Positions 37,467 through 61,222 of a stretch of DNA of 64,000 bases are shown here, piece by piece. Under the pieces are notes generated by a model. The model was given only the letters and a program-made list of their open reading frames with translations. It made no database searches and had not been told where the DNA came from. Position numbers and translations under genes: made by a program. Source of the DNA: Alphaproteobacteria bacterium. GTDB taxonomy: Bacteria > Pseudomonadota > Alphaproteobacteria > MPNO01. The DNA is taken from NCBI GenBank assembly GCA_965231875.1, contig CBDDOM010000003.1, positions 417,899 through 481,898 on the forward strand, written 5' to 3'. The first letter of the stretch is position 1. Each line of letters opens with the position of its first letter.

Positions 37467-37661
37467 CTTCTGCTCCTTGTTCGTTCTCGTCGCCGAAACG
37501 TCTCTAGCCGAGGCTAAGGATACGCTTGGCGTCGCCCCCGCGCAAAACCCGACCCGCCGGTTGTCACGGTCCGAAGGGCTGCATAGATTGCCGATCGCTT
37601 GGCTGTCGAATGAATCGTTTCCCGCGCGCCCGCACGGCGAGGCGGAAGGAGTCCATCTCCC

Positions 37662-43395: not shown

Positions 43396-43505
43396 TCGTC
43401 ATATCGACCGAAGCGCCGTCAGGCGCGCAGCTGAGAAATCTCGTGCGCGTGGCCGGAGATATCTCCGCTCCGCCGCGCTCCGCGCGGCTCCGGTCGATAT
43501 GACGA
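43396..43505. repeat. 110-bp palindromic intergenic repeat (empty copy of the outer element at 55663-56060)
   Basis: TCGTCATATCGACCGAAGC ... GCTCCGGTCGATATGACGA inverted arms; inner GAGAAATCT/AGATATCTC. Confidence 0.85.
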
Positions 43506-43598
43506 TGGGGTCTTGCGCCGATAGCGCGCCGGCCCACTGGACAAGGCCGAGGCCGCGCGGCTAGACCCTGCGTATCGAGCCCGGCCCGGGAGGAGCGA

Positions 43599-44678
43599 TT
43601 GGCTGACTTCGCGACACTGCATGAGATCGTCGCCGCCGCGCGCGGCAATCTGTCCGACGGCGTCTGGGACTACCTGACCGGCGGAACCGAGACGGAGACC
43701 TCCCTGCTCCGCAACCGCCTGGGGCTCGATTCGATCGCCTTCCGGCCTCGCGTGCTCAACGATGTCAGTTCCATCGATCTCGCGGGAACGATCGCCGGGC
43801 AGGCAACGCGGCTGCCCGTCGCGCTTGCGCCGATGGGTTCGCTGGAAAACCTGCACCCGGACGGCTCGATGGCGGTCGCCAGGGCGGCGGAGGCATTCGG
43901 CACGGTCTCCTACCTGAGCTCGGTGACGCATCCCGGGCTCGAGGCGATCGCCAAGGGCACCGGGCACCCGAAGATTTACCAGCTCTATGTCCGCGGCGAC
44001 CGGGAGTGGGTCGCGGAAATGGCGCGGCGCGCGATCGACAATGGCTACATCGCGTTCTGCCTCACCGTCGACGTCGCCCTCTACTCGCGCCGGGAGCGCG
44101 ACCTGATCAAGCGCTACGTGCCCACTGCGCGGCGCGCGTCCGCCGAGGGGATGGACTACCAGGCGATGCTCGACTGGGATTTCGTCGACTGGTTCAAGGA
44201 TTCCTTCGACATCCCGCTCCAGATCAAGGGGGTCGCGACCGCCGAGGACGCCGCGCTCTGCGTCGAGCACGGGGTGGACACGGTCTATGTCTCCAACCAC
44301 GGCGGGCGGCAGCTCGACCATGGCAGGGCGACCATCGACGTGTTGCCCGAGGTAGTGGAGGCGGTCGGCGGCAGGGCGGAGATCGTCATCGACGGCGGCT
44401 TCATGCGCGGCGCCGACATCGTCAAGGCGATCGCCCGGGGCGCCGATTCGGTCGCCATAGGCAAGGTTCAGGGCTTCGGGCTCGCCGCCGAGGGCAAATC
44501 GGGGATCGTCCGCGTGCTGGAGCTGCTGGAAGACGAGATGCGGATCGCGATGGGGCTGATGGGCCTCACCCGCCTCGACCGGCTCGACGAAACCTTTCTC
44601 CATGAAGCGGCGCCGGTGCGCGAGCCCTCGGCAATCTCCGCCTTTCCCTTTCTCAAACTCAGGTCACCGGAGTACTGA
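43599..44678 (+). CDS. FMN-dependent alpha-hydroxy acid dehydrogenase/oxidase
   Basis: FRPRVL, LAPMG, LTVD, RRERD, IKGV, VSNHGGRQLD, DGGFMRGAD; GGAGGAG before TTG. Confidence 0.93.
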   Translation: MADFATLHEIVAAARGNLSDGVWDYLTGGTETETSLLRNRLGLDSIAFRPRVLNDVSSIDLAGTIAGQATRLPVALAPMGSLENLHPDGSMAVARAAEAFGTVSYLSSVTHPGLEAIAKGTGHPKIYQLYVRGDREWVAEMARRAIDNGYIAFCLTVDVALYSRRERDLIKRYVPTARRASAEGMDYQAMLDWDFVDWFKDSFDIPLQIKGVATAEDAALCVEHGVDTVYVSNHGGRQLDHGRATIDVLPEVVEAVGGRAEIVIDGGFMRGADIVKAIARGADSVAIGKVQGFGLAAEGKSGIVRVLELLEDEMRIAMGLMGLTRLDRLDETFLHEAAPVREPSAISAFPFLKLRSPEY

Positions 44679-44681
44679 GCG

Positions 44682-46487
44682 ATGAACATGTTGCAGAAAT
44701 TCGACCGGCCCGCGCTCGGCGGCAACCGTCAAATGGAATGGACCAGCGACGTCGCGGCCGAGATGCTGCGCCGCCTCGGGATCAAGTACGTCTCGCTGAA
44801 CCCCGGCGCCAGCTATCGCGGGTTCCACGACTCGATCGTCAACTATCTCGGCAACGAAGACCCGCAGATGCTGCTCTGCCTGCACGAGGATCATGCGGTC
44901 TCGATCGCCCATGGATACGCCAAGGTGACCGACGAACCCATGGGGGCCATCGTCCATTCCAATGTCGGCCTGATGCACGGGTTGATGGCGATGTTCAACG
45001 CCTGGTGCGACCGCGCGCCGGTCTATGTGATGGGTGCGACCGGTCCGGTCGACGCGCCGCTCAGGCGGCCATGGATCGACTGGATCCACACCGCCAAGGA
45101 CCAGGGCATGATGCTGCGGAATTTCGTCAAATGGGACGACGAACCGCGCTCCGCCGAGGCGATCGTCGAAACCATGCTTCGCGGCGGGATCATGGCGCGG
45201 ACGCCGCCGCGCGGGCCGGTCTATATCTGTCTCGACGCGGGGCTCCAGGAAACCCGGCTCAACGGCGAAGTGACGATCCCGGACGCCGGAAGGTTCGAGG
45301 CGCCCGAGACGCCGCACGCATCGGCGGACGCCGTGTCCGCGGCGGCGGATACGCTGATCGCCGCCGAGCGGCCGGTGATGATGATCGGCCGGGTGTCGCG
45401 CAGCCAGAACGGGTGGGACCGTCGTGTGCGTTTGGCGGAAATGCTGGGCGCGCGCGTGGTCACCGACCTCAAGACCTCTTCCTCCTTCCCGACCGGGCAT
45501 CCGCTCCACGCGGGAGCGCCGTCCAACTGGGTGCGCGGTCCAGGCGAGGATCTGGTTCGGAACGCGGATGCGCTCCTTGTGCTCGACTGGATCGACCTTG
45601 CCGGCACCTTCAAGGCGCTGGGTCTCGGTTACGGCGTGGACGCGAAGGTCATCGACGTGACCCTCGACTCTTACGTTCACAACGGCTGGTCGATGGATCA
45701 TTTCGGACTTGCGGTGGGCGATCAGCGCCTGCTCGCCGATCCGGACGCCTTCGTTGTCCAGCTCCTCGCGGAGGTCGAGGAAAGGCTGGGCGGAAAACCC
45801 AAATTCGCCGGTGGCGATCCCGTGCCGCTCGCCGAACCCGATTCCAAGGAAGCGTCTTCGCCTATCGCACCGCGCGACATTGCCGGCGCGCTCAACCGGA
45901 TCAAGGGAGAGAGAAAGATAACCCTGACCCGCGTGCCGCTCGGCTGGGCAGGCGATTCGTATCACTTCTCCGAACCGCTCGATTACCTCGGCAACGATGG
46001 CGGCGGGGGGCTCGGTTCCGGCCCGGGCAATGCGGTCGGCGCCGGACTCGCGCTGATGGGATCGGACCGGGTGCCGGTCGCCATCCTCGGCGACGGCGAC
46101 TTCATGCAGGGCGGCTCGGCGCTCTGGACCGCCGCGCACTACAACATCCCTGTGCTCTTCGTGGTTTCCAACAACCGGTCGAACTTCAACGACGAGGTTC
46201 ATCAGGAGGCGATGGCGAAGGAGCGGAACCGTCCGGTGGAGAACCGCTGGATCGGCCAGCGCATCGACGATCCGGCGATCGACCTGGCCGGCTACGCCCG
46301 CTCGCAAGGCGTCGACGCGGCGGGTCCGGTCGAGACCGCGGGCGATCTTCCGGCGGCTCTCGATGCCGCCATCGCGGCCGTCGAAGCGGGCAAGCCGTTC
46401 CTGCTCGACGTGGTGGTCCAGCCGGGCTACAGCGCGCCCATGGTAACCCGGGCGAGCGGCGAGGCCTCGACCGGCACCGCGAGCTGA
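44682..46487 (+). CDS. Thiamine diphosphate-dependent enzyme (benzoylformate decarboxylase/acetolactate synthase-like)
   Basis: NPGASYRG, LHE, AHGYAK, GDGDFMQ...VSNN ThDP motif. Confidence 0.88.
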   Translation: MNMLQKFDRPALGGNRQMEWTSDVAAEMLRRLGIKYVSLNPGASYRGFHDSIVNYLGNEDPQMLLCLHEDHAVSIAHGYAKVTDEPMGAIVHSNVGLMHGLMAMFNAWCDRAPVYVMGATGPVDAPLRRPWIDWIHTAKDQGMMLRNFVKWDDEPRSAEAIVETMLRGGIMARTPPRGPVYICLDAGLQETRLNGEVTIPDAGRFEAPETPHASADAVSAAADTLIAAERPVMMIGRVSRSQNGWDRRVRLAEMLGARVVTDLKTSSSFPTGHPLHAGAPSNWVRGPGEDLVRNADALLVLDWIDLAGTFKALGLGYGVDAKVIDVTLDSYVHNGWSMDHFGLAVGDQRLLADPDAFVVQLLAEVEERLGGKPKFAGGDPVPLAEPDSKEASSPIAPRDIAGALNRIKGERKITLTRVPLGWAGDSYHFSEPLDYLGNDGGGGLGSGPGNAVGAGLALMGSDRVPVAILGDGDFMQGGSALWTAAHYNIPVLFVVSNNRSNFNDEVHQEAMAKERNRPVENRWIGQRIDDPAIDLAGYARSQGVDAAGPVETAGDLPAALDAAIAAVEAGKPFLLDVVVQPGYSAPMVTRASGEASTGTAS

Positions 46488-46840: not shown

Positions 46841-47917
46841 TCACAGCCTGATTTCCTCGCCCAGCAGCGGAAAGGCGCCGAGTTCGGTCGCCTCGGTCAC
46901 CGCGGGAGCCTCCGTGACGTAGCTCGGGTCCAGCTGGTCCATGCTCGTAATGCCGATCAGCCCCATCGCGTTGTGAATCTCAGCTTCCAGGATTTCAAGC
47001 GCACGGATCAGTGTCGCCGTCCCGCCGACCGCGAGCGCCCAGGCCTGGAGCCGGCCGATGGCGACCGCATTGGCGCCGAGAGCGAAGGCCTTGAGGACGT
47101 CGCACCCCCGGGCGATTCCGGAATCGAGCACGATTTCCGCCCGGCCGTCGACCGCCGCCACCACCTCCCGCAGGATGTCGATCGTGCCCTGGCCGTGGTC
47201 CATCTGCCGACCGCCGTGGTTGGAGACGTACACCACGTCGACCCCGTGCTCGACCGCGAGTTCGGCATCCTCGGCGGTCTGGATGCCCTTGAGGATGAAG
47301 GGAAGGCCGCCATGCTCCTTCATCATCGCCATGGTTTCCCAGGTGATTTTGGTCTGCCATTCGCGCCCGATCTGGGTGCGGACGCTGGGTGGCAGCCAGC
47401 GGCTGAGGAGCTGGCGTTCGCGGCGGCCGTAATGGGCCGAATCGACGGTGAGGGCGAGGGCGGCGTAGCCGGCGTCGCGCGCGCGTCCGACGAGGTCGCG
47501 GATCCAGTTTTCGTCGCCGCGAATGTAAATCTGGAAGATTTTCGGGTGATCGACCGCGTCCGCGATTTCTTCGAGGCTCGGCTGGGTGACGGTCGAGACC
47601 ATCTGCAGCGTGCCGAAGGCCGCCGCCGCCCGGGCCACGGCGACTCCCGCATCCGGAGTGATGGTCTGCAACGAACCGATCGGCGCGAGCAGGACGGGAA
47701 TTCGCAGTTTGTGACCGAGCAGCTGGCCCGAAGTGTCGATCTCGGAGACATCGCGCAGGACCCGCGGACGAAAGGCGATACGGTCGAGCGCATGCCGGTT
47801 GCGCCGCATCGTCGTCTCGGTCTCGGCGGCGCCGGTGATGTAGTTCCACACCGGTTGGCTCACGTTCGCGCGCGCGGCGCGGATGATTTCTTGCGTGGTC
47901 TCGAATCGCTCAGTCAT
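46841..47917 (-). CDS. FMN-dependent alpha-hydroxy acid dehydrogenase/oxidase (paralogue of 43599-44678)
   Basis: FRPRVLRDVS, LAPIG, LTVD, ILKGI, VSNHGGRQMD; start set at MTERF by alignment with paralogue. Confidence 0.92.
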   Translation of the reverse strand: MTERFETTQEIIRAARANVSQPVWNYITGAAETETTMRRNRHALDRIAFRPRVLRDVSEIDTSGQLLGHKLRIPVLLAPIGSLQTITPDAGVAVARAAAAFGTLQMVSTVTQPSLEEIADAVDHPKIFQIYIRGDENWIRDLVGRARDAGYAALALTVDSAHYGRRERQLLSRWLPPSVRTQIGREWQTKITWETMAMMKEHGGLPFILKGIQTAEDAELAVEHGVDVVYVSNHGGRQMDHGQGTIDILREVVAAVDGRAEIVLDSGIARGCDVLKAFALGANAVAIGRLQAWALAVGGTATLIRALEILEAEIHNAMGLIGITSMDQLDPSYVTEAPAVTEATELGAFPLLGEEIRL

Positions 47918-48027
47918 GGGGTGCTCCGGTGATCTGGTCTGCTTCTTTCCTGGGTTGAGGACGCGCCGTTGACAGCGGCGGCGCCAGAGACGAAACATGA
48001 TCCCACGCCGGAGCGGCACGGAGAACC

Positions 48028-48834
48028 ATGGCCAACATCCTTGAGATTTCCGAGGTCTCGAAGACCTATGACGTCGACACCGGGAACCCCGTCCAGGCGC
48101 TGGACCGGGTAACGCTCGACGTCGCCGAGGGCGAGTTCGTCTCGGTGATCGGCCCCAGCGGTTGCGGCAAGTCGACGCTTTTCAACATCGTCGGCGGCCT
48201 GATCGCCCAATACGAGGGCAGCGTGCTGATCGACGGCCACGCGGTCGACGGCGCGCATCGCGACGTCGGCGTCGTGTTCCAGGAAGAATCGACCTTTCCC
48301 TGGCGAACCACGCTCGACAACGTCGCCTTCCCGCTCGAGGTCCAGGGCATGACCAAGGTCGACCGCGACGAACGGGCGCGGAAATTCGTGAGTCTGGTGG
48401 GCCTCGATGGTTTCGAGAACCACTACCCGGCCCAGCTCTCGGGCGGGATGAAACAGCGGACGGCGGTGGCGAGGACTCTTGCGTACGAGCCGCGCATCAT
48501 GCTGCTGGACGAGCCGTTCGGCGCACTCGACGAACAGACCCGCATGCTGCTCGGCGACAAGATGCTGGAGATCTGGGCGGCGCTGAACCAGACGATGCTG
48601 CTGATCACCCACAACATCACCGAAGCGGTCCAGCTCTCGGACCGGGTGGTGGTAATGTCCTTCCGTCCCGGCAAGATCAAGGAGATCATCGAGATCGATC
48701 TGCCGCGTCCACGGTCGTCGGAAGTGATTTCCACGCCCAAATTCGGCGAATACGTCGGGAGGCTCTGGACGCTTCTCCGCGAGGAGGCATCGCGGGGGAT
48801 GGTCGAGGCCGAAGCCGAGCTCGCAGCACGATAA
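48028..48834 (+). CDS. ABC transporter ATP-binding protein, NitT/TauT family
   Basis: GPSGCGKST, LSGGMKQR, LLDEPFGALD, ITH. Confidence 0.95.
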   Translation: MANILEISEVSKTYDVDTGNPVQALDRVTLDVAEGEFVSVIGPSGCGKSTLFNIVGGLIAQYEGSVLIDGHAVDGAHRDVGVVFQEESTFPWRTTLDNVAFPLEVQGMTKVDRDERARKFVSLVGLDGFENHYPAQLSGGMKQRTAVARTLAYEPRIMLLDEPFGALDEQTRMLLGDKMLEIWAALNQTMLLITHNITEAVQLSDRVVVMSFRPGKIKEIIEIDLPRPRSSEVISTPKFGEYVGRLWTLLREEASRGMVEAEAELAAR

Positions 48835-48907
48835 AATGGGCGGTTTCGCAGCCGTGGCGGGTTTCGGATAGACTGCCGCGGCTGATCACAAGGAGGGGAG
48901 TGAACAA

Positions 48908-49873
48908 ATGGCTGGATACGTGAAAACGGCGGTGCTTGCCGCCATGGCGGCGGCGGTCGCCGCAGCGCCCGCGGTAGCGCTCGACAAGGTCCGCATGGTC
49001 AACAGCACCAAGGTGGTGTTCGAGACCGAGCATCCCTACGCCGCCAAGGAAAACGGGATCTTCGAGAAGTACGGGCTCGACGTGTCGATCATCCACGGCT
49101 CGGGCGGCGCGGCATCGCTTCAGGCGGTAATCACCGCAAGCCAGGACGTGGTCTGGGGCAACGGCGTGCTCGGCGTGGTGTCGGCCTATGCCAAGGGTGC
49201 GCCGATCCGCGTGCTGGGAAGCAACATCCGTGGCGTGCCCGACCTCTACTGGTATGTGAAGACCGACAGCAAGATCAAGAGCTTCAAGGATCTCAAGGCG
49301 AGTGACGAATTCGTCTATTCGCGGCCGGGCTCCACCACCAACCTTGCTGTCCTGTTCATCAAGGAAGCGCTCAACATCCCGGCCAAGGCGGTCTCGGTCG
49401 GCGGGCCGTCGGGCTCGCGTACGCAGCTCATGTCGGGCCAGGTGGCCACCGGGTGGTCGGTCTTCCCGCTCAACAAGAACCTGTTGCGCGAAAAGAAGAT
49501 CCGCATCATCGGCACGGGGGCCTCGGCCGCCGCGCTGACCGGCACCACCATCCGTGTGATCGTGGCGAACGTGAACTGGCTCAACAAGAACCGCGATGCC
49601 GCCAGACGCCTGATGAATGCGCTTACGGAGGGCCAGGCGCGCACCTATTCGAGCGACGAGCAGTTGAGGGCCTATGCCAAGCGCTGGAAGCTCAACTACG
49701 AGGACATAAAGTCGGCGCCGATGGACACGCCGCTCAACTCCTCGACCTTCCTGCCGGTCGCCGGGCTTGAGACCATCAACAAGATCGCGCTCGAGAACAA
49801 GAAGATCAAGAAGCTGCTCACCGCGGAACAGCTCAAGGAGCTGGTGCATCCGATGGGCAACAAGCCCATCTAA
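48908..49873 (+). CDS. ABC transporter substrate-binding protein, NitT/TauT family
   Basis: Signal peptide, GIFEKYGLDV, IKSFKDLK, SRPGSTT. Confidence 0.88.
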   Translation: MAGYVKTAVLAAMAAAVAAAPAVALDKVRMVNSTKVVFETEHPYAAKENGIFEKYGLDVSIIHGSGGAASLQAVITASQDVVWGNGVLGVVSAYAKGAPIRVLGSNIRGVPDLYWYVKTDSKIKSFKDLKASDEFVYSRPGSTTNLAVLFIKEALNIPAKAVSVGGPSGSRTQLMSGQVATGWSVFPLNKNLLREKKIRIIGTGASAAALTGTTIRVIVANVNWLNKNRDAARRLMNALTEGQARTYSSDEQLRAYAKRWKLNYEDIKSAPMDTPLNSSTFLPVAGLETINKIALENKKIKKLLTAEQLKELVHPMGNKPI

Positions 49874-49897
49874 AGCGTTGCGCGCGGACGGCGCGGG

Positions 49898-50659
49898 ATG
49901 ACGGGTTCGTTCAAGCTATCCAGGTCGCCCGTCCTGGTCGGCGCTCTTGGGCTCGCGGTGTTCTTCTGCGTGCTTGAGATCGCGGTCGAGACCGGGATGG
50001 TGATGGAACTCGTCGTCCCGCGCCCGTCCGACGCGTTTCTCGCGTTCCCGTCGGTCCAGGAGGATATGGACCTGGTCGGCAACTTTTTCGTTACCCTGGG
50101 CATGACCGCGGCCTCGACCGGGATCGCGCTCGCGATAGGGGTGCCTTTCGGATATTTCCTCTATCGGAACCGGCGTTACGGCATCGCCTATGAAGGCTGG
50201 CTCGCGGCCGCCTTCGCGGCGCCCACGGTGCTGCTTTACCCGTTGTTCCTGGTGATCTTCGGACGGACCTATCTGACGCTGATCATGATGGGTTTCATCC
50301 CGGGCGCGATTCCCATCGTCATCCAGACCCGGCAGGGCCTGCTCGGCGTGTCTCAAACGCTGCTCAATGTCGGGCGGAGCTTCAATGTTTCCGAGCGGGA
50401 GATGTTCTGGAAGATCCAGCTTCCCAGCGCCGTCCCGACCATCTTCACGGGCATCCGCATCGGGGTGATGTATACTCTCGTCAACATTGTCGCGATCGAA
50501 TACCTGATCGATTTCGGCGGGCTGGGGCGGATCGTCTCGGAGATGTATTTCCGCTTCGACACACCCGGCACCTACGCCAGCATCGTCGCCGTCATTCTGG
50601 TGAGCGTGTTCTTCTACTGGGGCTTCGGAAGGATCGAGAAGTGGCTCAGGCCGGTGTAG
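49898..50659 (+). CDS. ABC transporter permease, NitT/TauT family
   Basis: TM helices, LLNVGRSF...KIQLPSAVPTIFTGIR, GLG. Confidence 0.9.
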   Translation: MTGSFKLSRSPVLVGALGLAVFFCVLEIAVETGMVMELVVPRPSDAFLAFPSVQEDMDLVGNFFVTLGMTAASTGIALAIGVPFGYFLYRNRRYGIAYEGWLAAAFAAPTVLLYPLFLVIFGRTYLTLIMMGFIPGAIPIVIQTRQGLLGVSQTLLNVGRSFNVSEREMFWKIQLPSAVPTIFTGIRIGVMYTLVNIVAIEYLIDFGGLGRIVSEMYFRFDTPGTYASIVAVILVSVFFYWGFGRIEKWLRPV

Positions 50660-51486
50660 TCCAAAGCGCGGCGCCCGCGGTCGCCACCGACCGCGAGGCG
50701 ACGGTGTTCCGGATCCGACTGCTCACCGTTATCTGCCTGCTGGTGGCATGGGAAGGGCTGGCCGCGCTCGGCAGCCTGGAGATCCTCTACGGCGACGTGA
50801 TCCCGTCGTCGTGGAAGATCGCCGTTGCGGTGTGGGGCGAGGTCATGGCGGCCGATTTCTACCGCGATCTCGGGATCACCTTCGCCGAGCACATCGTTGG
50901 CTTCATCGTCGGCTCCGCGATCGCGCTCGCGCTCGGCATCGCCATGGGGGTGAACCCGCTGCTCCGCAAGGCGATCGAGCCCTATCTCAATGCCATCGGA
51001 TCGACGCCCAAGATCATTTTCCTGCCGATCCTGTTCCTGATCTTCGGCACCGGGATCGATTCGAAGATGGCCAAGGGCGCGCTCTCGGCCTTTTTCCCCG
51101 TGGTGTTCTCGACCGCGCTGGGAATGATCCTGATCAATCCGGTTCTGCTGCGCGTGGGGAAGTCGTTCAATCTGAACCAGTGGCACACGGTGACCAAGAT
51201 CTATATCCCGGCGATGGTCAACCCGGTGATCACCGGGCTCCGGCTGGGCATGGCGATCACCGTCATCGGCGTGCTGGTCGCCGAGCTTAAATTCGCCGAC
51301 GGGGGCCTCGGCTACCGGCTCGGGAACTATTACGAACTGTTCAAGATCGCGGAAATGTACGCGATCATACTCATCATCTTCGCGCTCGCCGCGCTTGCGA
51401 ACATGGGCATGACCCGCCTGCAGACATACGCAAACCGGCATCAGGGCGGGTCCGGAGCCCACAGTCTCTCGGTCGCCACCAACTGA
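50641..51486 (+). CDS. ABC transporter permease, NitT/TauT family
   Basis: PKIIFLP, FFPVV, KIYIPA...TGLRLG, VAE...GGLG. Confidence 0.9.
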   Translation: MAQAGVVQSAAPAVATDREATVFRIRLLTVICLLVAWEGLAALGSLEILYGDVIPSSWKIAVAVWGEVMAADFYRDLGITFAEHIVGFIVGSAIALALGIAMGVNPLLRKAIEPYLNAIGSTPKIIFLPILFLIFGTGIDSKMAKGALSAFFPVVFSTALGMILINPVLLRVGKSFNLNQWHTVTKIYIPAMVNPVITGLRLGMAITVIGVLVAELKFADGGLGYRLGNYYELFKIAEMYAIILIIFALAALANMGMTRLQTYANRHQGGSGAHSLSVATN

Positions 51487-51522
51487 GGCGCCGGGACCGG
51501 TTTACCGAAAGGAGACGTGCGA

Positions 51523-51891
51523 ATGGCAAGGGAGATCTTTGTCGCCAAATCCAACGACCTTCCCGACGGCGAGCGCAAGATCGTTCCCAACGGCAATTCG
51601 GAGATCGGCGTCTACCGGGTGAAGGGCAGGCTGTATGCCTACCAGAACCTTTGCGCCCACCAGGGCGGGCCCGCATGCGAAGGGCTGCTGATGGCCAAGG
51701 TCGAGGAGGTCATCGCCGAGGACAAGACCTATCAGGGGATGCGGTTCAACCACGACGAGATGCACATCGTCTGTCCCTGGCACGGCTGGGAGTACGACCT
51801 CGAGTCCGGCGTGATGGTGGCGGACAGGACCTTCCGCCTGAGGAAATACGACGTCGTCGAGAAAGAGGACGGCATCTATGTCCTCGCCTGA
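51523..51891 (+). CDS. Rieske [2Fe-2S] ferredoxin
   Basis: CAHQGGP and CPWHGWEYD; AGGAG RBS; 122 aa. Confidence 0.93.
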   Translation: MAREIFVAKSNDLPDGERKIVPNGNSEIGVYRVKGRLYAYQNLCAHQGGPACEGLLMAKVEEVIAEDKTYQGMRFNHDEMHIVCPWHGWEYDLESGVMVADRTFRLRKYDVVEKEDGIYVLA

Positions 51892-52204
51892 GCAGCCGGA
51901 AGAAGAATTCGGCGATCTGCTCGCCGATGTCGGAGAGGAAACGGCGAAGCTTCAGGCGTTCGCGGAGAAGATGCTCGCGTTGGAGAAGGGCAAGGAGCCG
52001 CCCGACGAGTTGATCCAGGAAGGACTCACCGCGCTGACAAGACTCTATACCGTCAAGTTCCAGGTCGGAGAGCGCTGGTCGCCGTTCGTCGACGACCGTG
52101 CCATGCCGGCGACCGCGGTCATGATCATGTGCACCGCGATGCTGCGGGCCGTGAATGTCGAGCTTTTCGAACTCGGCATGTGGCAGGCCTGGTCAGGCGC
52201 CTGA
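51878..52204 (+). CDS. Small acidic helical hypothetical protein
   Basis: 108-aa ORF overlapping Rieske stop, GAGGA upstream, host-like codon usage, fills operon gap. Confidence 0.75.
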   Translation: MSSPEQPEEEFGDLLADVGEETAKLQAFAEKMLALEKGKEPPDELIQEGLTALTRLYTVKFQVGERWSPFVDDRAMPATAVMIMCTAMLRAVNVELFELGMWQAWSGA

Positions 52205-52216
52205 AGGAGACGAAGG

Positions 52217-53458
52217 ATGGATATTCCGACAAGCGACATCCACAAGATGACCGTCGAGGAGTTCGACACCAAGAAACTCCTCATCAACGCGGCGCGCCAG
52301 CGGGAACAGCGCAAGCTGGACGACGTGCTGATCGTCGATGTCGATTGCCATCACTATGAAAACGAGTCGCTGCGCGACATCATCCAATACATCGAAGACC
52401 CGGTGATCAAGCAGACCGGCATGGTCTATTCCGGCGGCGGAACCGGCGCGCAGACGCCGCTCCTTCCCGGTGTGGTCGGCTATCAGGATATCTCCGGCCG
52501 GGTGATGCGCTATCCGCTCCGCAAGATGGAGCAGACGCCGGCCGACGGCACTCACCGCGATATCCACCTGTCGCTCAAATGGATGGACGCGATGGGTGTC
52601 GACTACGTGTCGATGTTCCCGACGCCGATGCTGCTGCTCGGCCTGCACCCCCAGCCCGAGATAGAGGTCGCGATGTCGCGCGCCTACAACCGCTGGCTGG
52701 TGGAACAGATCCTGCCGCAGAACGAGCGCATCACCTCGATGCTCTACCTGCCGTTCAACGACCCCGAAGCCAGCTACAAGATGGTGCGGGACTTCGGCGA
52801 CAGGCCCGGAGTGGTCGGTTTCTCGGTCGTGTCGACGCGGTACAAGCCAGTCTACGACAACGCTTACATGAAGACGTACCGGCTGATGGAGGAGATGGGC
52901 AAGCCGCTTGCCTTCCACGCGTCCTATAACTGGAACGATCCGCTCCTCGGGGCGACCAACCGGTTCCTCGTCACCCACGCGATGGGGTTCACGATCTACA
53001 ACGCCATGCACTGCGCGAACTGGGTGATCAACGGCCTGCCGGAGCGTTTCCCCGGTCTCAAGGTGATCTGGATCGAATCGGGCCTCGCCTGGGTTCCGTG
53101 GCTGATGCAGCGCCTCGACAACGACTACAAGATGCGGAGCTCGGAGGCGCCGTCGCTCAGGAAGCTGCCGAGCGAGTACATGCAGGACATGTACTACTCC
53201 TCGCAGCCGATGGAGGTTCCCAACGACCTCGACGTGCTCGAGATGACGTTCAAGATGATCAAGGCCGAGACCCAGCTCTGCTGGTGCTCCGACTACCCGC
53301 ACTGGGACATGGACCTGCCCAGCGTGATCTACGACCTTCCCTTCCTCGACGAGACGGCGAAGCGCAACATCCTCGGCGAGAACGCGCGCAAGCTGTTCAA
53401 CCTCGACGTCTCCGGCCGCTTCCCGAACTATCGGCCGCCGGGCGGCGGAAACGCGTGA
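52217..53458 (+). CDS. Amidohydrolase-fold metalloprotein (DYPHWD type; candidate dinuclear oxygenase subunit)
   Basis: DVDCHH, FPT, AYNRW, AFHAS, WIESG, CSDYPHWD. Confidence 0.85.
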   Translation: MDIPTSDIHKMTVEEFDTKKLLINAARQREQRKLDDVLIVDVDCHHYENESLRDIIQYIEDPVIKQTGMVYSGGGTGAQTPLLPGVVGYQDISGRVMRYPLRKMEQTPADGTHRDIHLSLKWMDAMGVDYVSMFPTPMLLLGLHPQPEIEVAMSRAYNRWLVEQILPQNERITSMLYLPFNDPEASYKMVRDFGDRPGVVGFSVVSTRYKPVYDNAYMKTYRLMEEMGKPLAFHASYNWNDPLLGATNRFLVTHAMGFTIYNAMHCANWVINGLPERFPGLKVIWIESGLAWVPWLMQRLDNDYKMRSSEAPSLRKLPSEYMQDMYYSSQPMEVPNDLDVLEMTFKMIKAETQLCWCSDYPHWDMDLPSVIYDLPFLDETAKRNILGENARKLFNLDVSGRFPNYRPPGGGNA

Positions 53459-54774
53459 GCACCGCCGCGCATGCGGCGGCCATCGAGCCGGCGGCCGCGC
53501 CGACGCTGACGGAAGGGCTGGTCGGACTGATCCGTTCCAGGCCCATCGTCCGGTCCGACCTCCACGCGATGGCGCTGATCGTGCTCGACGGCATCGCCAA
53601 CATGCTCGCCGGACGGGTTACCGAGCCGGGGCGGATCCTGCGGCGCTGGGGTGCGGACAAGCAGGACCCGGGGCGCCGCGCGCTCCTGATGGGCGGCTGC
53701 ATGCACATCCTGGAGGTCGACGACCTTCATCGCGGCTCGGTCACCCATCCGGGATGCGTCGTCATCCCCGCCGCGCTGGCGCTTGCCGGCAAGGCCGGGG
53801 CGGACGGCGAAACCTTCTTGCGCGCGGTGCTGCATGGTTTCGAGGCGGTCTGCCGGGTCGGAATGTCGGTCGGCCGGATGCACTACAAGGTATGGCACAA
53901 CACCGCGACCTGCGGGCCGTTCGGCGCCGCGATGGCGGCGGCCGCTCTGCTTGAGCTCGACGACGGGGCCGCCGTACATGCGCTCGGCAATGCGGGAACG
54001 CAATCGGCCGGGTTGTGGGAATTCCTCAACACCGGGGCGATGAGCAAGCACCTGCACGCGGGACGCGCGGCGGAGGCAGGGGTGGTCGCTGCCGAACTGG
54101 CGGCGGCCGGCTTTACCGGTCCGCCCGCGATCCTAGAAGGTCCGCAGGGATTCTATGCCGGTGCCTGTCCGGACCCCGATCCCGGCGCGGTGCTGCGCGA
54201 CCCGGACGCGCCGTGGCAGGTGCACGCGACCTCGATCAAGCCCTGGCCGTCCTGCCGGCACACCCATCCTGTCATCGACGCCGCGCTTGAGGTCTCCGCG
54301 GGGACCGATCCGCAAGCGGTGGTTGCCGTCGAAGCGTTGACCTACGGGGCGGCGGTCGATGTGTGCGACAGGCCGATACCGACATCGCCGTATGAAGCGA
54401 AATTCTCCCTCCAGCATTGCATCGCCGCGGCGCTTGCCGACGGGGCGGTGGGCTTCGATTCTTTCGAAGCCGAAGCGCGGGCGCGTCTTTCCGCGCTGCG
54501 CTCGCGCGTGCGGGTCGGGGCGGGCGAGCCCTATGCGTCCGATTATCCGGCCGCCTGGGGCGGCGAGGTGACCGCGATCTTCGACGACGGCAGCCGCGTG
54601 ACCGCTTCCCGCCGGCGGTGCAAGGGCGATCCCGAAGCGGCGCTCGACCGCGACGAGATGGCGGACAAGGCGCGCGGTCTGCTGCGCTTCGGCGGCATCG
54701 CCGATCCAGAAGCGATGATCGGGGCCGTGCTCGCGATGGCCGGCGGCGGGCCGGTGCCGGAATTCGATATCTGA
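53455..54774 (+). CDS. MmgE/PrpD family protein
   Basis: HILEVDDLH, HPG, WHNT, KHLHAG, LEGPQGF, IKPWPSCRHTH, AKFS; GTGA overlap with upstream stop. Confidence 0.88.
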   Translation: MSTAAHAAAIEPAAAPTLTEGLVGLIRSRPIVRSDLHAMALIVLDGIANMLAGRVTEPGRILRRWGADKQDPGRRALLMGGCMHILEVDDLHRGSVTHPGCVVIPAALALAGKAGADGETFLRAVLHGFEAVCRVGMSVGRMHYKVWHNTATCGPFGAAMAAAALLELDDGAAVHALGNAGTQSAGLWEFLNTGAMSKHLHAGRAAEAGVVAAELAAAGFTGPPAILEGPQGFYAGACPDPDPGAVLRDPDAPWQVHATSIKPWPSCRHTHPVIDAALEVSAGTDPQAVVAVEALTYGAAVDVCDRPIPTSPYEAKFSLQHCIAAALADGAVGFDSFEAEARARLSALRSRVRVGAGEPYASDYPAAWGGEVTAIFDDGSRVTASRRRCKGDPEAALDRDEMADKARGLLRFGGIADPEAMIGAVLAMAGGGPVPEFDI

Positions 54775-54785
54775 GGGGAACGCCG

Positions 54786-55622
54786 ATGGCGGATGCGGGA
54801 CAGGTCGCGAAGGCCGAAGCCTTTCGGGCGCTGCATGACGGGCCGGAGCCGCTGGTCCTCGTCAACGCTTCCGATGCGTCGATCGCGCGGATCGTCGTCG
54901 AGGCCGGGTACCCGGCGGTGGCAACGTCCAGCGCCGGCATCGCCTGGCTGATGGGCTATGCCGACGGCGAGAACATACCGCGCGATGAAATGCTCTGGAT
55001 GGTGCGCCGCATCGCCGAGCGCGTCGACGTGCCGGTGACGGCCGACATGGAGGCGGGGTACGGAGTCGAACCCGAAGCGGTGGCCGACACCGTGCGCGCA
55101 ACGATCGGGACTGGCGCTATCGGGCTCAACATCGAGGACGGCGCGGTTCGCACGCCCGGCCCGCTGCTCGACTACGATCTCGCGGTCGCCCGGATCGCGG
55201 CAGGGCGCCGGGCCGCGGACGAGACTGGCGTACCGGCCGTCATCAACGCGCGCTGCGACGTGTTTCTGCGCGGCGGCAAGGGCCCGGAAGCCCTCCAGGA
55301 AGCGATCCGCCGCTGCAACGCCTTTCGCGAGGCCGGCGCGGACTGTCTGTTCGTCCCCTTCGCGCGCGATGCCGAGACCATCGGAGCCCTCGTCGAAGGC
55401 ATCGACGGGCCGTTGAACATCCTGGCGAACGCGGTCTCGCCGCCGGTCCCCGAGCTCAAGCGCCTCGGCGTCGCCCGGATCAGCATCGGCGGGCTGCTCT
55501 CGCTCGCCTACGCCACGCTGGCGCGCCGCGCGGCGGGCGAGCTGGACGATTCCGGGACTTACGGGTTCGCCGAGGGCGTCATACTCCACCCCGAAATGAA
55601 CGCCCTGATGGCGGGCGATTAG
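54786..55622 (+). CDS. Isocitrate lyase/PEP mutase superfamily protein
   Basis: FRALH, ATSSAG, PVTADMEAGYG, GLNIED, INARCD, AGADCLFVP; no KxCGH loop. Confidence 0.85.
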   Translation: MADAGQVAKAEAFRALHDGPEPLVLVNASDASIARIVVEAGYPAVATSSAGIAWLMGYADGENIPRDEMLWMVRRIAERVDVPVTADMEAGYGVEPEAVADTVRATIGTGAIGLNIEDGAVRTPGPLLDYDLAVARIAAGRRAADETGVPAVINARCDVFLRGGKGPEALQEAIRRCNAFREAGADCLFVPFARDAETIGALVEGIDGPLNILANAVSPPVPELKRLGVARISIGGLLSLAYATLARRAAGELDDSGTYGFAEGVILHPEMNALMAGD

Positions 55623-55733
55623 GGCGTTTCCGCGCCGTCCTTGTCAGCCGCCCAACCCAATCCGTCATTTCGACCGCAGCGCCGAAGGCGCGGAGCGGAG
55701 AAATCTGTCTGCGCAGGTTTCGCGGCATCGAAG

Positions 55734-55998
55734 GGGGCTTATAAAGATAGCTTGACGGTGACCGGGCCGCCGCCCGGTGCCGGCGGGCGCGGGACCTGTC
55801 CCGCCTCCTCCGTCATGGTCGGCGCAGGCCGACCATCCACGAGTTTTTTTGGCGCTGGAAACAAAAGAACAAATCGTGGATGGTCGGCCTGCGCCGACCA
55901 TGACGGCAGAGGAACGGTCTAGTGCGAAAGGGGTATGCCCCGGCGCCTCCCGGAACGTCTGTCGACCTACCGCCCGTCAAGTTATCCATATAAGCCCC
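55734..55998. mobile_element. 265-bp MITE with 25-bp imperfect terminal inverted repeats and 8-bp target site duplication
   Basis: TIRs GGGGCTTATAAAGATAGCTTGACGG / GGGGCTTATATGGATAACTTGACGG; CATCGAAG direct repeat at 55726-55733 and 55999-56006. Confidence 0.75.
55810..55906. repeat. REP-like perfect 33-bp inverted repeat inside the MITE
   Basis: CCGTCATGGTCGGCGCAGGCCGACCATCCACGA (55810-55842) and its exact reverse complement (55874-55906). Confidence 0.9.
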
Positions 55999-56190
55999 CA
56001 TCGAAGCGGAAAGGTATCTCCGCTCCGCCGCCCTTGCGGACGGCTTCGGTCGATATGACGAAGGGGATGATCTGAGCTTCCGTCCAAACCGGACGGGCCT
56101 TAAGCGCTTGGTAAGCGGTGGGGATGGCCCACCTACCTTATATATAGGGAGTAGGTTTGGATTGGCCTTCTTGACGGGGAGGGCGATCTG

Positions 56191-56673
56191 TTGGGCGATG
56201 AGTATCGAAGCGGTCCCATCGACTGGGATTTTCTGGAGGACTTTGAGGCTGAGCCGGCTTCGGAAGTAGAACCGGCTTCGGAAGTGGAGGCGTCTTCCGA
56301 GCGGTCGGCGCCGTCTCGCTGGAGCGAGGAAGAGAAGGCACGGATCGTTCGCGAGAGTTTCTGGCCCGGAGAGCGCGTGGGCGATGTGGCCGAGCGTTAC
56401 GGTCTGTCGAGCAGACGGTTGTCGTCGTGGCGCAGCCTTGCCCGCGAAGGCAAGCTGGTGCTTCCATCGTCTACGGCGGATCCGGAGCCTGAGCCGATTG
56501 CTGCGCCCGAACCGGCCTTCGCGACAGTAGAGGTTGATCCGCTGCCGGTGCCGGAGCGGTGCCTGATCGGTTCGGTTTCGATCAAGGCGTGCGGAGTGAC
56601 GGTTCGCCTGGACGGCGATATTGGCGCGAGCCGGATCGCGGAGATCGCGTCCTTGTTGAGGGCGCTGCGATGA
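56191..56673 (+). CDS. tnpA: IS66 accessory protein TnpA (HTH)
   Basis: RWSEEEKARIVRES...VAERYGL...LSSWR; start uncertain. Confidence 0.85.
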   Translation: MGDEYRSGPIDWDFLEDFEAEPASEVEPASEVEASSERSAPSRWSEEEKARIVRESFWPGERVGDVAERYGLSSRRLSSWRSLAREGKLVLPSSTADPEPEPIAAPEPAFATVEVDPLPVPERCLIGSVSIKACGVTVRLDGDIGASRIAEIASLLRALR

Positions 56674-57023
56674 TGGCGGCGGGCTCGGGGTCGAAGATCG
56701 TGGTGGCGACGCGGCCAATTGACTTCCGCAAGGGTCACGATGGTCTTGTGGCGGTGGTCGAGCACGAGCTGGGTCTGGATCCGTATTCCGGCATCGTCTT
56801 CGTCTTTCGCCCCAAGCGCGCCGACAGGGTCAAGATTCTCTGGTGGGACGGGACGGGTCTGGTGCTGGCGACGAAGCGCCTTGAGCAGGGCCGGTTTGCC
56901 TGGCCGGCGGTTTGCGACGGGGTGATACGGCTTTCGCGGGCGCAGTTCGAGGCCTTGTTCGAGGGGCTCGATTGGCGCCGGGTGTGGGGACCTCGGGTTC
57001 GCCGTCCGCTCGCGGCGGCATGA
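56670..57023 (+). CDS. tnpB: IS66 accessory protein TnpB
   Basis: PIDFRKGHDGL, FVFRPKRADRVKILWWDGTG, KRLEQGRFAWP; ATGA overlap. Confidence 0.93.
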   Translation: MMAAGSGSKIVVATRPIDFRKGHDGLVAVVEHELGLDPYSGIVFVFRPKRADRVKILWWDGTGLVLATKRLEQGRFAWPAVCDGVIRLSRAQFEALFEGLDWRRVWGPRVRRPLAAA

Positions 57024-57081
57024 GCGGGTCTGATTCGGATCGCCGCATTCCGTGGCGGCGATGCGATGGTAGTCTTCCGTC

Positions 57082-58665
57082 ATGGAACCAGGCCCCGGCA
57101 CGGTCGATCTCGCATCGCTTGCGCCTCCCTTGCAGGCACTGTTCGCGGGACAGCAAGCGGCTCTTGAGACGCTGCGCGTCGAGAACGCGGCGCTGAGCGA
57201 CCAGAACCGGCGCCTTGAACATCTGCTCGACGAGTTGCGCCGGGCGATGTTCGGGAAGAAGTCCGAGAAGCTCGACCCCGACCAGCTCCAGCTTGCCTTC
57301 GAGGAACTCGAAGGTGCGCTGGCTGAGGCCGGGGAAGAGGGTCCGACGGGCACGACGCCGGCGCCGCGCGCGAAGCGCCGCGCCGCGGAGCGCAACCTCG
57401 GTCATCTGCCGGCCCACCTGCCGCGCATCGAGCGGGTGATCGAACCCGAGAGCATCGAGTGCCCTTGCGGCTGCGGCCAGATGGTTCGTATCGGCGAAGA
57501 CCGCACCGAGCGGCTCGATATCGTTCCGGCGCAGTTCCGGGTGATCGTCACCGTGCGTCCGAAGTATGCCTGCCGCAAGTGCGAGGAAGGCGTCACCCAG
57601 GCACCGTCGCCCGCTTGGCTGATCGAGGGAGCGCTGCCGACCGAGGCGCTGCTCGCCCATGTTCTGGTGTCGAAGTTCGCGGACCATCTTCCGCTGTATC
57701 GCTTATCGCAGATCTTCGCCCGCTCGGGCATCGAGCTGCACCGTTCGACGCTGGCCGAGTGGGTCGGCAAGGCGTCGTTCCACCTTGGGCCCGTGTTCGA
57801 CTGCCTGAAGGCGGAACTGAAGACGTCGAGTACGCTGGGGCTGGACGAGACCACGGTTCGGGTGCTCGACCCGGGCCGGGGCAAGACGAAGACAGGCTAC
57901 ATGTGGACGATGGCGCGCGACGAGCGGTCGTGGTCCGGGGCCGACCCGCCGGGCGTGATCTATGAGTATGCACCGAGCCGCAGTGGCAAGCATGGTGAGA
58001 CGTTGCTCGAGGGCTTCCAGGGAACGGTGCAGGTCGACGGCTATGCCGGCCACAACCGGCTGGCCCGGTCGACCCGGCCGGGCGGAGCTCTGACGCTGGC
58101 AGCATGTTGGATCCACGCGAGGCGGGGGCTCAAGGAGGTGTTCGACAGCAACGGCTCGCCGATCGCGAAGGCCGGACTGGAGCGCATCGCGCAGCTCTAC
58201 AAGATCGAGGACAGGATCCGGGGCGAGAAGCCGGCGACGCGCCAGTTCGTCCGGTGGACCGAGTCCGCGCCGCTGGTGAACGCCTTCGGCGTGTGGCTCG
58301 ACGAGCAGCGCTCGCGCGTCTCGCCACGCTCGCGCCTGGGCGAGAAGCTGACCTATATCGCCAACCAGTGGGGCAGGATGCTGGTGTTCCTCTACGACGG
58401 GCGCGTCGAGATGGACAGCAACTTCGTCGAGAACCGGATCCGACCGATCAAGCTCACCGCGAAGAATGCGCTGTTCGCCGGCCACGACGAGGGCGCTCGC
58501 TCCTGGGGCCGCGCCGGCTCGCTCATCGAGACCTGCAAGATGAACGGCGTTGAGCCCTACGCCTGGCTCAAGAATACGCTGGAGAAAATCGCCGCCGGCC
58601 ACCCGCTGTCGAAAATCCACGAGCTGTTGCCCTGGAACTTCGAGCCCGGGGCCAACCCCACCTGA
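57082..58665 (+). CDS. tnpC: IS66 DDE transposase TnpC
   Basis: FGKKSEK, LPAHLPR, CPCGC, KFADHLPLYR, DET, VDGYAG, CWIHARR, DSNFVENRIR, ELLPW. Confidence 0.95.
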   Translation: MEPGPGTVDLASLAPPLQALFAGQQAALETLRVENAALSDQNRRLEHLLDELRRAMFGKKSEKLDPDQLQLAFEELEGALAEAGEEGPTGTTPAPRAKRRAAERNLGHLPAHLPRIERVIEPESIECPCGCGQMVRIGEDRTERLDIVPAQFRVIVTVRPKYACRKCEEGVTQAPSPAWLIEGALPTEALLAHVLVSKFADHLPLYRLSQIFARSGIELHRSTLAEWVGKASFHLGPVFDCLKAELKTSSTLGLDETTVRVLDPGRGKTKTGYMWTMARDERSWSGADPPGVIYEYAPSRSGKHGETLLEGFQGTVQVDGYAGHNRLARSTRPGGALTLAACWIHARRGLKEVFDSNGSPIAKAGLERIAQLYKIEDRIRGEKPATRQFVRWTESAPLVNAFGVWLDEQRSRVSPRSRLGEKLTYIANQWGRMLVFLYDGRVEMDSNFVENRIRPIKLTAKNALFAGHDEGARSWGRAGSLIETCKMNGVEPYAWLKNTLEKIAAGHPLSKIHELLPWNFEPGANPT

Positions 58666-61063: not shown

Positions 61064-61222
61064 GCACTATTTCCGGCCGTGAGCGCCCGCCGAGTCGGGC
61101 CTTGAGCTACCTAATCATACCGTCCGGGTGCCCACAACACGCCGGCCCGACCGCGATTTGACCGGGTTTCTCTCCGGGGTATGATCGCCTGTACGGCAAG
61201 CTGGGAAGGAACGAACAAGTCA

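Follow-up and report, generated by a model that had tools for sequence, protein, structure and literature searches.

Nine closely packed genes on the + strand at positions 48028-55622 of a 64,000-nt stretch of alphaproteobacterial DNA (the window; C3:417899-481898 of a 6.18-Mb, 3-contig source genome) very probably serve to import a small organic molecule, probably an anion, and to oxidise it in a first step by an amidohydrolase-related dinuclear oxygenase (ARO) that is fed by a Rieske ferredoxin. An earlier reading of the letters alone had proposed one tight operon in which a Rieske gene stands ahead of an amidohydrolase-fold gene, and all nine genes were confirmed where that sequence-only reading had placed them, with spacings between neighbours of -19 to +73 nt. 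It recognised the enzyme class correctly, but in calling the system undescribed it went too far: Rieske-neighboured AROs have been in print since 2024 (PMC10811679), and a definition of the family by two motifs is given in the available text of PMC13154177. The variant that the main texts of these two papers do not describe is a three-gene module in which a 108-residue protein, the least explained and most conserved companion of the oxygenase, is encoded between the ferredoxin and the ARO. The operon comprises the following genes.

48028-48834, + strand: ATP-binding subunit of an ATP-binding cassette (ABC) transporter of the nitrate/sulfonate/taurine type (PF00005, 1.8e-31)
48908-49873, + strand: periplasmic substrate-binding protein of the NMT1/THI5 (SsuA/TauA-like) family (PF09084, 3.5e-15)
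49898-50659, + strand: ABC permease 1 (PF00528, 1.1e-21)
50641-51486, + strand: ABC permease 2 (PF00528, 3.1e-20), overlapping permease 1 by 19 nt
51523-51891, + strand: stand-alone Rieske [2Fe-2S] ferredoxin, 122 amino acids (PF00355, 2.4e-14)
51878-52204, + strand: 108-amino-acid protein with no Pfam match, predicted to form four helices
52217-53458, + strand: putative ARO, 413 amino acids (PF04909, 7.4e-20)
53455-54774, + strand: MmgE/PrpD-superfamily (PrpD-like) protein, 439 amino acids (PF03972, 1.6e-51; PF19305, 7.5e-30)
54786-55622, + strand: protein of the phosphoenolpyruvate (PEP)-mutase/isocitrate-lyase (ICL) superfamily (PEPM-like), 278 amino acids (PF13714, 4.4e-78)

Several lines of evidence support membership of the 413-residue protein in the ARO superfamily. 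First, both signature motifs are present. The available text of Liu et al. 2026 defines the superfamily, some 17,000 sequences, by an N-terminal D-x-H in the first strand, which supplies two site-1 ligands, and a C-terminal D-x-P-H-x-D/E (PMC13154177). In the operon protein, D43-C44-H45 lies inside the predicted first strand (residues 40-46), and D359-Y-P-H362-W-D364 is preceded by 358 residues, where about 200 or more are called for, as a regular-expression check of the open reading frames (ORFs) of the genome bears out. The wider ligand pattern that had been read from the letters, D41-x-D43-x-H45, H234, E287 and D359-x-x-H362-x-D364, is real, being invariant in 27 of 27 aligned relatives and paralogues; H234 and E287 align with the conserved His and Glu of 8sm7, 8sm6 and 8sm9, an assignment made by alignment and not from a metal-bound structure.

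Second, the top five sequence matches in the PDB (phmmer) are all solved AROs: 8sm7 (1e-39), 8sm6 (SfbO; 1e-29), 8sm9 (1e-27), AibH2 (2e-23) and 8sm8 (2e-20). PtmU3 (6e-15) and AibH1 (7e-11) come next, and PF04909 decarboxylases appear only from about 7e-8.

Third, an AlphaFold2 model built from a 27-row alignment (predicted local distance difference test, pLDDT, 78.7; predicted template modelling score, pTM, 0.84) has 8sm7, SfbO, AibH2, 8sm8 and 8sm9 as its leading Foldseek matches (E 5e-18 to 4e-14, probability 1.00), with target-normalised template modelling scores of 0.75-0.82 against solved AROs; decarboxylases follow near 1e-11. The TIM-barrel fold of PF04909 is indicated by the Pfam match, the pTM and the Foldseek probability alike, and every sequence-level feature by which membership is judged was found.

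Fourth, the association of the Rieske and ARO genes is far beyond chance. We scanned one genome per species for ARO relatives; 78 loci were kept from 559 relatives, and 4 of the 78, with less than 800 nt upstream, were dropped before counting. Related loci are the 57 with at least 800 nt upstream whose ARO is at least 67% identical, the closest (95-96% identity) coming from Defluviicoccus-labelled and other alphaproteobacterial metagenome-assembled genomes (MAGs); the remaining 17 form a group at 63-66% identity. A Rieske gene lies just upstream of the ARO gene in all 57 related loci, and the oxygenase reading is therefore not refuted on the point that had been named beforehand as its test, the conservation of this linkage. 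Five loci of the 63-66% group (Bradyrhizobium and Beijerinckiaceae) also have a Rieske gene upstream; the other 12 fall in a clade of paralogues, among them the gene at 29849-31084 of the window, and this clade stands in a TRAP and TctA/B transporter context without a Rieske gene. The ferredoxin itself retains its cluster ligands, C44-x-H46 and C84-x-x-H87, in 22 of 22 relatives. Because the signature motifs, the match to solved AROs and the fully conserved Rieske linkage agree, the proposal that the PF04909 protein is a dimetal oxygenase fed by a Rieske ferredoxin, and not a hydrolase, is supported.

From the gene identities, motifs, fold and synteny we infer a scheme for metal content, electron path, reaction, substrate class and the role of the small protein. 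The ABC importer would bring in a small, probably carboxylated (anionic) molecule. The ligands of two metals (Fe2 or Mn/Fe) would be D43, H45, H234, E287, D359 and H362, D364 belonging to the second sphere, and two electrons would reach the metals from NAD(P)H by way of a reductase encoded elsewhere in the genome and the Rieske ferredoxin of the operon. The dimetal site would then activate O2 and either hydroxylate a substrate C-H bond or trigger dealkylation through such a hydroxylation, with the four-helix protein assisting the oxygenase module. The oxidised product would pass to the PrpD-superfamily enzyme, acting by proton abstraction next to a carboxylate, and to the PEP-mutase/ICL-superfamily enzyme. 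Neighbouring 2-hydroxy-acid oxidases and thiamine diphosphate (ThDP) decarboxylases would probably join in, so that the product is oxidised, epimerised or decarboxylated, and shortened. Three such genes lie immediately upstream, the ones dependent on flavin mononucleotide (FMN) on either side of a ThDP enzyme.

43503-44678, + strand: second FMN-dependent 2-hydroxy-acid dehydrogenase (assigned by Pfam; in 35 of 46 related loci)
44679-46487, + strand: benzoylformate-decarboxylase-like ThDP enzyme (best PDB match benzoylformate decarboxylase, 2.5e-29; in 25 of 46 related loci)
46841-48019, - strand: FMN-dependent 2-hydroxy-acid oxidase/dehydrogenase, divergent from the operon (PF01070, 2.9e-108)

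The divergent oxidase, whose best PDB matches are L-lactate oxidase (4e-104), glycolate oxidase and 4-hydroxymandelate oxidase, has a homologue upstream in 34 of 46 related loci and possibly acts in the same pathway as the operon. Downstream neighbours were counted in the 49 related loci with at least 4 kb of sequence on that side: a PrpD-like gene follows the ARO gene in 46, a PEPM-like gene occurs in 40 and an acetolactate-synthase-like ThDP enzyme in 32. In 15 more distant loci there is neither a PrpD-like nor a PEPM-like gene (0/15 each), nor any homologue of the FMN dehydrogenases. The ABC importer genes are kept upstream of the Rieske, small-protein and ARO genes only in the closer relatives. 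Since 2-hydroxy-acid oxidases, ThDP decarboxylases and the PrpD-like and PEPM-like proteins are conserved together with the ARO, they suggest that its product is a 2-hydroxy carboxylic acid; a carboxylated substrate converted to a 2-hydroxy acid is the class that we put forward, as possible but doubtful.

The importer and the last two enzymes give their own indications. The ABC ATPase matches the SaoA, TauB and NtrCD types best among NCBIfam models, all under their cut-offs, and the binding protein matches SsuA_fam (8e-12) far under its cut-off, its sole PDB relative being the weakly matching 3qsl (1e-9). Judged by its closest solved relatives, iminodisuccinate (IDS) epimerase 2hp3 (2.8e-35), Bacillus subtilis IRG1 (2.2e-33) and then cis-aconitate decarboxylases (CADs), the PrpD-like protein belongs to the IDS-epimerase/IRG1 (CAD-like) branch of the MmgE/PrpD superfamily. 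The PEPM-like protein is closest to 4mg4 ('Phosphonomutase', 8e-50), 2ze3 ('DFA0005', 1e-49) and 4lsb ('lyase/mutase', 1e-42). We rejected orthology of the former to PrpD (19.7 bits against an equivalog cut-off of 950) and of the latter to PrpB (71.9 bits against 354, with methylisocitrate lyases at about 1e-15), and with them a methylcitrate-type PrpD/PrpB module, as both proteins miss the equivalog cut-offs widely. The dehydration and C-C cleavage steps that the sequence-only reading had placed after the hydroxylation are therefore only a guess. A phosphonate pathway, which the PEP-mutase family and a weak match of the binding protein to Phosphonate-bd (E 0.0054) had raised, was set aside: models for PEP mutase and phosphonopyruvate hydrolase score far under lyase models. 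We found no publication linking a Rieske protein, an amidohydrolase, PrpD and isocitrate lyase.

Six observations weigh against the scheme as a whole or in part. The first concerns electron supply: of the two reductase families searched in the genome, neither the 2 PF00175 matches nor the 13 PF07992 matches at E ≤ 1e-10 include one in the window, the operon included, and the electron path is therefore incomplete. Next, the PEPM-like sequence has no C-G-H after its I-E-D-G segment. Known lyases of the PEP-mutase/ICL superfamily carry K-(K/R)-C-G-H after that segment, and a role of this protein as a C-C lyase is therefore uncertain. Third, the ARO model contains a low-confidence insert at residues 74-97. 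Fourth, R232 and R235, which bind sulfate in SfbO, align with A255 and F258 of the operon ARO, and the substrate therefore differs from the surrogate of SfbO; a sulfonate bound as in SfbO is for the same reason unsupported, and we set that candidate aside. Fifth, four related loci, all from Acidobacteriota MAGs (ARO 70-73% identical), have no small gene, and there the Rieske gene overlaps the ARO gene, from which it follows that the small gene is not indispensable everywhere.

The sixth is the metal signature. According to Table 1 of PMC13154177, Mn use is predicted by a hydrophobic gamma1, a hydrophilic gamma2 and an aromatic gamma4 residue, and a diiron site by the opposite states. Here gamma4 is W363, the Mn-type state; gamma1 is C44, varying among C, A and S across the clade and borderline for the hydrophobic criterion; and gamma2 is probably F134, which is invariant and closes the predicted second strand. 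A Phe in this position is of the diiron type; pairwise alignments with 8sm6 and 8sm7, rather than the published alignment, pair it with a Thr in both, that of SfbO being its gamma2 residue. Gamma3 is C357 and gamma5 is M365. The signature thus appears mixed and matches neither row of the published table, so that the cofactor (Fe2 or Mn/Fe) is not predictable from it. Having a Rieske partner speaks for the low-potential group of AROs; in the available text of PMC13154177, Rieske ferredoxins accompany mainly low-potential, Mn-using members.

Among the alternatives, the one that fares best concerns the reaction and is, in our estimate, somewhat unlikely: instead of forming a stable alcohol, the ARO would bring about an N- or O-dealkylation that is started by hydroxylation and runs by way of a hemiaminal or hemiacetal, as with SfbO, or else an oxidative decarboxylation or desaturation of the kind seen in BarH-like AROs, and the PrpD-like protein would prepare or process a substrate of the aminopolycarboxylate type. 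Precedents exist, as SfbO dealkylates aminoethylsulfonates by N-alpha C-H hydroxylation (PMC10811679) and E0U9F9/LynB7 decarboxylate oxidatively according to the available text of PMC13154177; the nearest solved relative of the PrpD-like protein is IDS epimerase, and the importer is of the taurine/sulfonate/nitrate type. However, the conserved 2-hydroxy-acid oxidases and ThDP decarboxylases suit a 2-hydroxy-acid product better, the sulfate-binding arginines of SfbO are not conserved, and the clade is only distantly related to the BarH-like H-type AROs, which, as far as the text of PMC13154177 was available, rarely pair with a Rieske protein.

The 108-residue protein has no match in Pfam, NCBIfam, the PDB (sequence and profile) or the ESM Atlas. 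Its model (pLDDT 82) consists of four helices at residues 18-33, 43-62, 78-91 and 94-107, and a Foldseek search of the PDB with this model returned nothing significant (best E 0.84). The ORF overlaps the Rieske gene by 14 nt, lies 12 nt ahead of the ARO gene and has a GC content at third codon positions of 0.79, the bias of real genes in the source genome. The family, whose hallmark is a C-terminal N-x-E-x-F-E-L-G-M-W-Q-x-W, shows no conserved Cys or His in its alignment. It has 265 relatives in a word-indexed protein set; among 120 listed relatives, those with a name are called 'hypothetical protein', except for one labelled 'Mn-containing catalase'. Searched with a profile, 1.84 billion representatives yielded 800 clusters (50% identity) at E ≤ 0.001, 337 of them at E ≤ 1e-10. 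The main texts of PMC10811679 and PMC13154177, as available and taken apart from the figures and supplements that hold their neighbourhood diagrams, make no mention of a small accessory or hypothetical protein.

The position of the small gene is conserved across widely diverged loci. Of the 57 related loci, 53 have it between the Rieske gene and the ARO gene, the Acidobacteriota accounting for the four exceptions, and the same triad recurs in the five Bradyrhizobium and Beijerinckiaceae loci, where the small protein is only 34-45% identical. The source genome holds a second, diverged triad at C2:1971106-1973042 (Rieske 48%, small protein 42% and ARO 52% identical) whose neighbours are other ones, HAD and alpha/beta hydrolase genes, and another genome (G144) has two triads. 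In a metagenome scan seeded by the small-protein motif only, 80 of 574 relatives were kept. Where the flank in question measured 300 nt or more, a Rieske gene stood upstream of the small gene in 75 of 75 loci and an ARO gene downstream in 65 of 66 (locus L145, with a downstream flank of 74 nt, not counted); where both flanks were available, the triad was complete in 61 of 62 loci. The exception, metagenome contig L106, runs from the Rieske and small genes directly into a PrpD-like gene 66% identical to that of the operon, with no ARO between. When 401 genomes were sampled evenly across the phylum, the small protein turned up in 2, the source genome counted, and the ARO clade (E ≤ 1e-60) in the same 2.

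Longer members of the family were also considered. One 186-residue database protein fuses a Rieske domain to the small-protein domain, either as a real fusion or as a frameshift artefact. Pfam searches of ten longer members found this one with a Rieske domain in front, seven without a match and two with matches that we take as unrelated, one weak and histone-like, the other to a DNA-polymerase exonuclease domain. Three of the seven blank members, whose sequences were inspected, have Lys/Ala/Pro-rich N-termini, and several members of about 200 residues carry long extensions of this kind (a set including P0253, P0148, P0164 and P0178, in which the fusion protein also falls). No longer fused form was found in a set of 5.8 billion sequences, a result that the tool itself rates as weak evidence. 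A complex prediction for the ARO, the Rieske ferredoxin and the small protein scored 0.00 in both runs and is uninformative either way.

Its genetic setting suggests that the small protein is a functionally linked auxiliary component of the oxygenase module, perhaps a subunit with a coupling or structural role, perhaps an assembly factor. A bolder proposal, to which we give not quite an even chance, is that it founds an undescribed family and forms a true third component of a large Rieske-coupled ARO subclass, as a subunit or coupling protein that would dock between ferredoxin and hydroxylase and be required for efficient, coupled turnover, and that the ARO clade defines a new route from an imported carboxylic acid to a 2-hydroxy acid destined for oxidation and decarboxylation. 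Less likely is that it stays outside the catalytic cycle, either helping, as a factor or chaperone, to assemble the dimetal site or the [2Fe-2S] cluster, or acting as a regulator that merely accompanies the Rieske gene. That the Acidobacteriota orthologues do without it, that no Cys or His is conserved, that in L106 it stays with the Rieske gene and that it is once fused to a Rieske domain, possibly by artefact, would all fit such a role. The lack of conserved metal-binding residues, on the other hand, makes a metallochaperone unlikely, and translational coupling and a fixed Rieske-small-ARO order over hundreds of diverged loci suit a stoichiometric partner equally.

The electron supply of the preferred Rieske-fed oxygenase has to be seen against the whole genome. 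According to the sequence-only reading, the window lacks a ring-hydroxylating alpha subunit, a P450 and a reductase, and the whole-genome searches agree within the families covered (Rieske, P450, PF00175 and PF07992): among 79 genome-wide Rieske-domain matches only the Rieske gene of the operon falls in the window, and none of 8 P450 matches does. Most of the 79 lie in open frames of 340-520 residues, the size of oxygenase alpha subunits; the nearest outside the window is at C3:417014-417274. The source genome has an unusually large oxygenase repertoire that must share few reductases, and with 79 Rieske-domain genes against those few, shared reductases are the rule. About 40 kb upstream of the window, at C3:378016-379248, a Pyr_redox_2 gene of the ferredoxin-reductase type, itself at C3:378016-378906, adjoins another small Rieske ORF, and this pair is a candidate for a shared electron-transfer pair serving orphan oxygenases, including the operon ARO. 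It is highly improbable that the PF04909 protein works as a conventional hydrolase or decarboxylase, mononuclear and without redox chemistry, next to a Rieske gene that serves another enzyme: Pfam does place it only in Amidohydro_2, and the 79 Rieske-domain genes are in need of electron carriers, but D-x-H with D-x-P-H-x-D is not reported for any characterised PF04909 hydrolase or decarboxylase in the available text of PMC13154177, solved AROs match at 1e-39 to 2e-20 against about 1e-7 for decarboxylases, and the Rieske linkage holds in 57 of 57 loci with no Rieske oxygenase alpha subunit in the window.

Gene starts were refined from the sequence. For the Rieske gene we chose ATG 51523, with AGGAG 8-9 nt ahead, over an alternative GTG at 51517; its homologues, at 122-123 residues, agree in size with the product of this start. 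The PrpD-like gene begins at GTG 53455, in a GTGA overlap with the ARO stop, and the PEPM-like gene at ATG 54786. A promoter and terminator scan of 47700-56300 found no promoter-like site, its terminator-like matches fall within genes, and it is therefore uninformative. Contigs from RNA libraries cover parts of the stretch, where they indicate presence only and where uncovered parts mean nothing. In one metatranscriptomic library, contigs at 98-100% identity extend over the start of the Rieske gene and over parts of the ARO gene, one of 305 nt spanning the small/ARO junction; in a second RNA study, contigs from a 90-95% identical relative span the small/ARO and ARO/PrpD-like junctions. Because RNA libraries can hold DNA, these contigs are a weak hint at transcription of the operon.

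The wider neighbourhood holds further genes of the same kinds. A complete IS66 element (56191-58665; HTH_Tnp_1 ORF, IS66 Orf2-like ORF and DDE transposase) lies between the last operon gene and the downstream ThDP enzyme, which in relatives adjoins the operon directly. A second pair of MmgE/PrpD and PEP-mutase/ICL genes at 61115-63624 of the window is kept in 24 of 49 and 13 of 49 loci, respectively. Upstream of the operon, 37614-43364 encodes three UbiD-family paralogues and an SDR.

ARO genes themselves are numerous in the source genome, where 10 of 19 PF04909-like ORFs qualify as AROs under the published motif rule. The paralogue in the window (29849-31084, + strand; 63% identical) carries the motifs D-S-H and D-Y-P-H-W-D; neither a Rieske nor a small gene adjoins it, and it lies amid DctP/DctM TRAP and TctA/TctB transporter genes. 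Another, at C2:330984-333290, is directly followed by a cytochrome P450 gene, and a third, on contig C1 (28537-29727), adjoins a UbiD gene, a ThDP enzyme and a PrpD-like gene; ARO, UbiD, ThDP and PrpD-like genes recur together in this genome. Some relatives have tandem ARO genes or the order ARO-Rieske-small-ARO (L017, L022, L026-L029, L032, L036, L039, L041, L043, L045-L047, L050, L054 and L057, on a neighbourhood map that rests on crude gene calling), an arrangement that recalls the two-subunit AibH1H2.

The term ARO was coined by Liu et al. 2024, who arrived at the group through PF04909 genes adjoining small Rieske genes and solved 8SM6-8SM9 (PMC10811679); by the account of Liu et al. 2026, in the text available, this Rieske-neighbour strategy gave 3,307 candidates (PMC13154177). 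Closest to the operon ARO among characterised members are D3EI84 from 'Geobacillus' sp. Y412MC10 (8SM7) and SfbO from Litorilinea aerophila (8SM6; partner SfbR), its best sequence and fold matches. They share the fold, the two motifs, an adjacent gene for a small Rieske ferredoxin and the aromatic gamma4 Trp, and the published strategy, in the parts available, likewise draws no reductase adjacent to them (PMC10811679, PMC13154177). The operon ARO is only about 25-27% identical to these two and 40-60 residues longer, its N-terminus being extended and about 62-110 forming an insert. It has Cys at gamma1 and probably Phe at gamma2, where D3EI84 and SfbO have Val/Ile and a small polar residue; it lacks the sulfate-binding arginines of SfbO, and it has the 108-residue gene between itself and the Rieske gene.

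The three-component 2-aminoisobutyrate hydroxylase AibH1H2-AibG-AibF of Rhodococcus wratislaviensis is likewise an amidohydrolase-fold dimetal hydroxylase with a Rieske ferredoxin, encoded in a catabolic operon with a transporter (PMC7782822, as far as available). Unlike the operon, with its single PF04909 gene (the paralogue 21 kb off keeps both motifs) and no PF00175 or PF07992 match in the window, the Aib system is a heterotetramer of two amidohydrolase-fold subunits with a dedicated FMN/[2Fe-2S] reductase in its cluster, and the small helical protein has no counterpart in the Aib gene table (PMC7782822). PtmU3, the diiron hydroxylase of platensimycin biosynthesis (6OMP), belongs to the same superfamily and has the same type of C-terminal motif but is distant (6e-15 by sequence, 5e-11 by fold); in the available text of PMC13154177 it is H-type, biosynthetic and without a Rieske partner.

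For the downstream pair, PrpD and PrpB (2-methylcitrate dehydratase and 2-methylisocitrate lyase) offer the same two superfamilies side by side, with equivalog cut-offs that the operon proteins miss. Bacterial multicomponent monooxygenases have small effector or auxiliary proteins of the MmoB, MmoD and DmpK types. Their likeness to the small protein is a functional analogy only, that of a protein of about 100 residues encoded near hydroxylase and ferredoxin in a multicomponent oxygenase operon, whereas in sequence and fold the small protein resembles nothing solved.

AROs are recently recognised, largely mis-annotated C-H-activating enzymes for which, by the available accounts, natural substrates are established in few cases (PMC10811679, PMC13154177). 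To these the locus adds a clade with a well conserved catabolic context, a possible lead to a natural substrate; an ARO whose second-sphere signature falls outside the published Mn-versus-Fe rules; and a conserved small partner absent from the main texts of both papers. Should the small protein not be part of the enzyme, the locus would be one more uncharacterised member of a known family; should it be part of the working enzyme, reconstitution and engineering would change, and AROs of this subclass would have to be studied together with their small partner.

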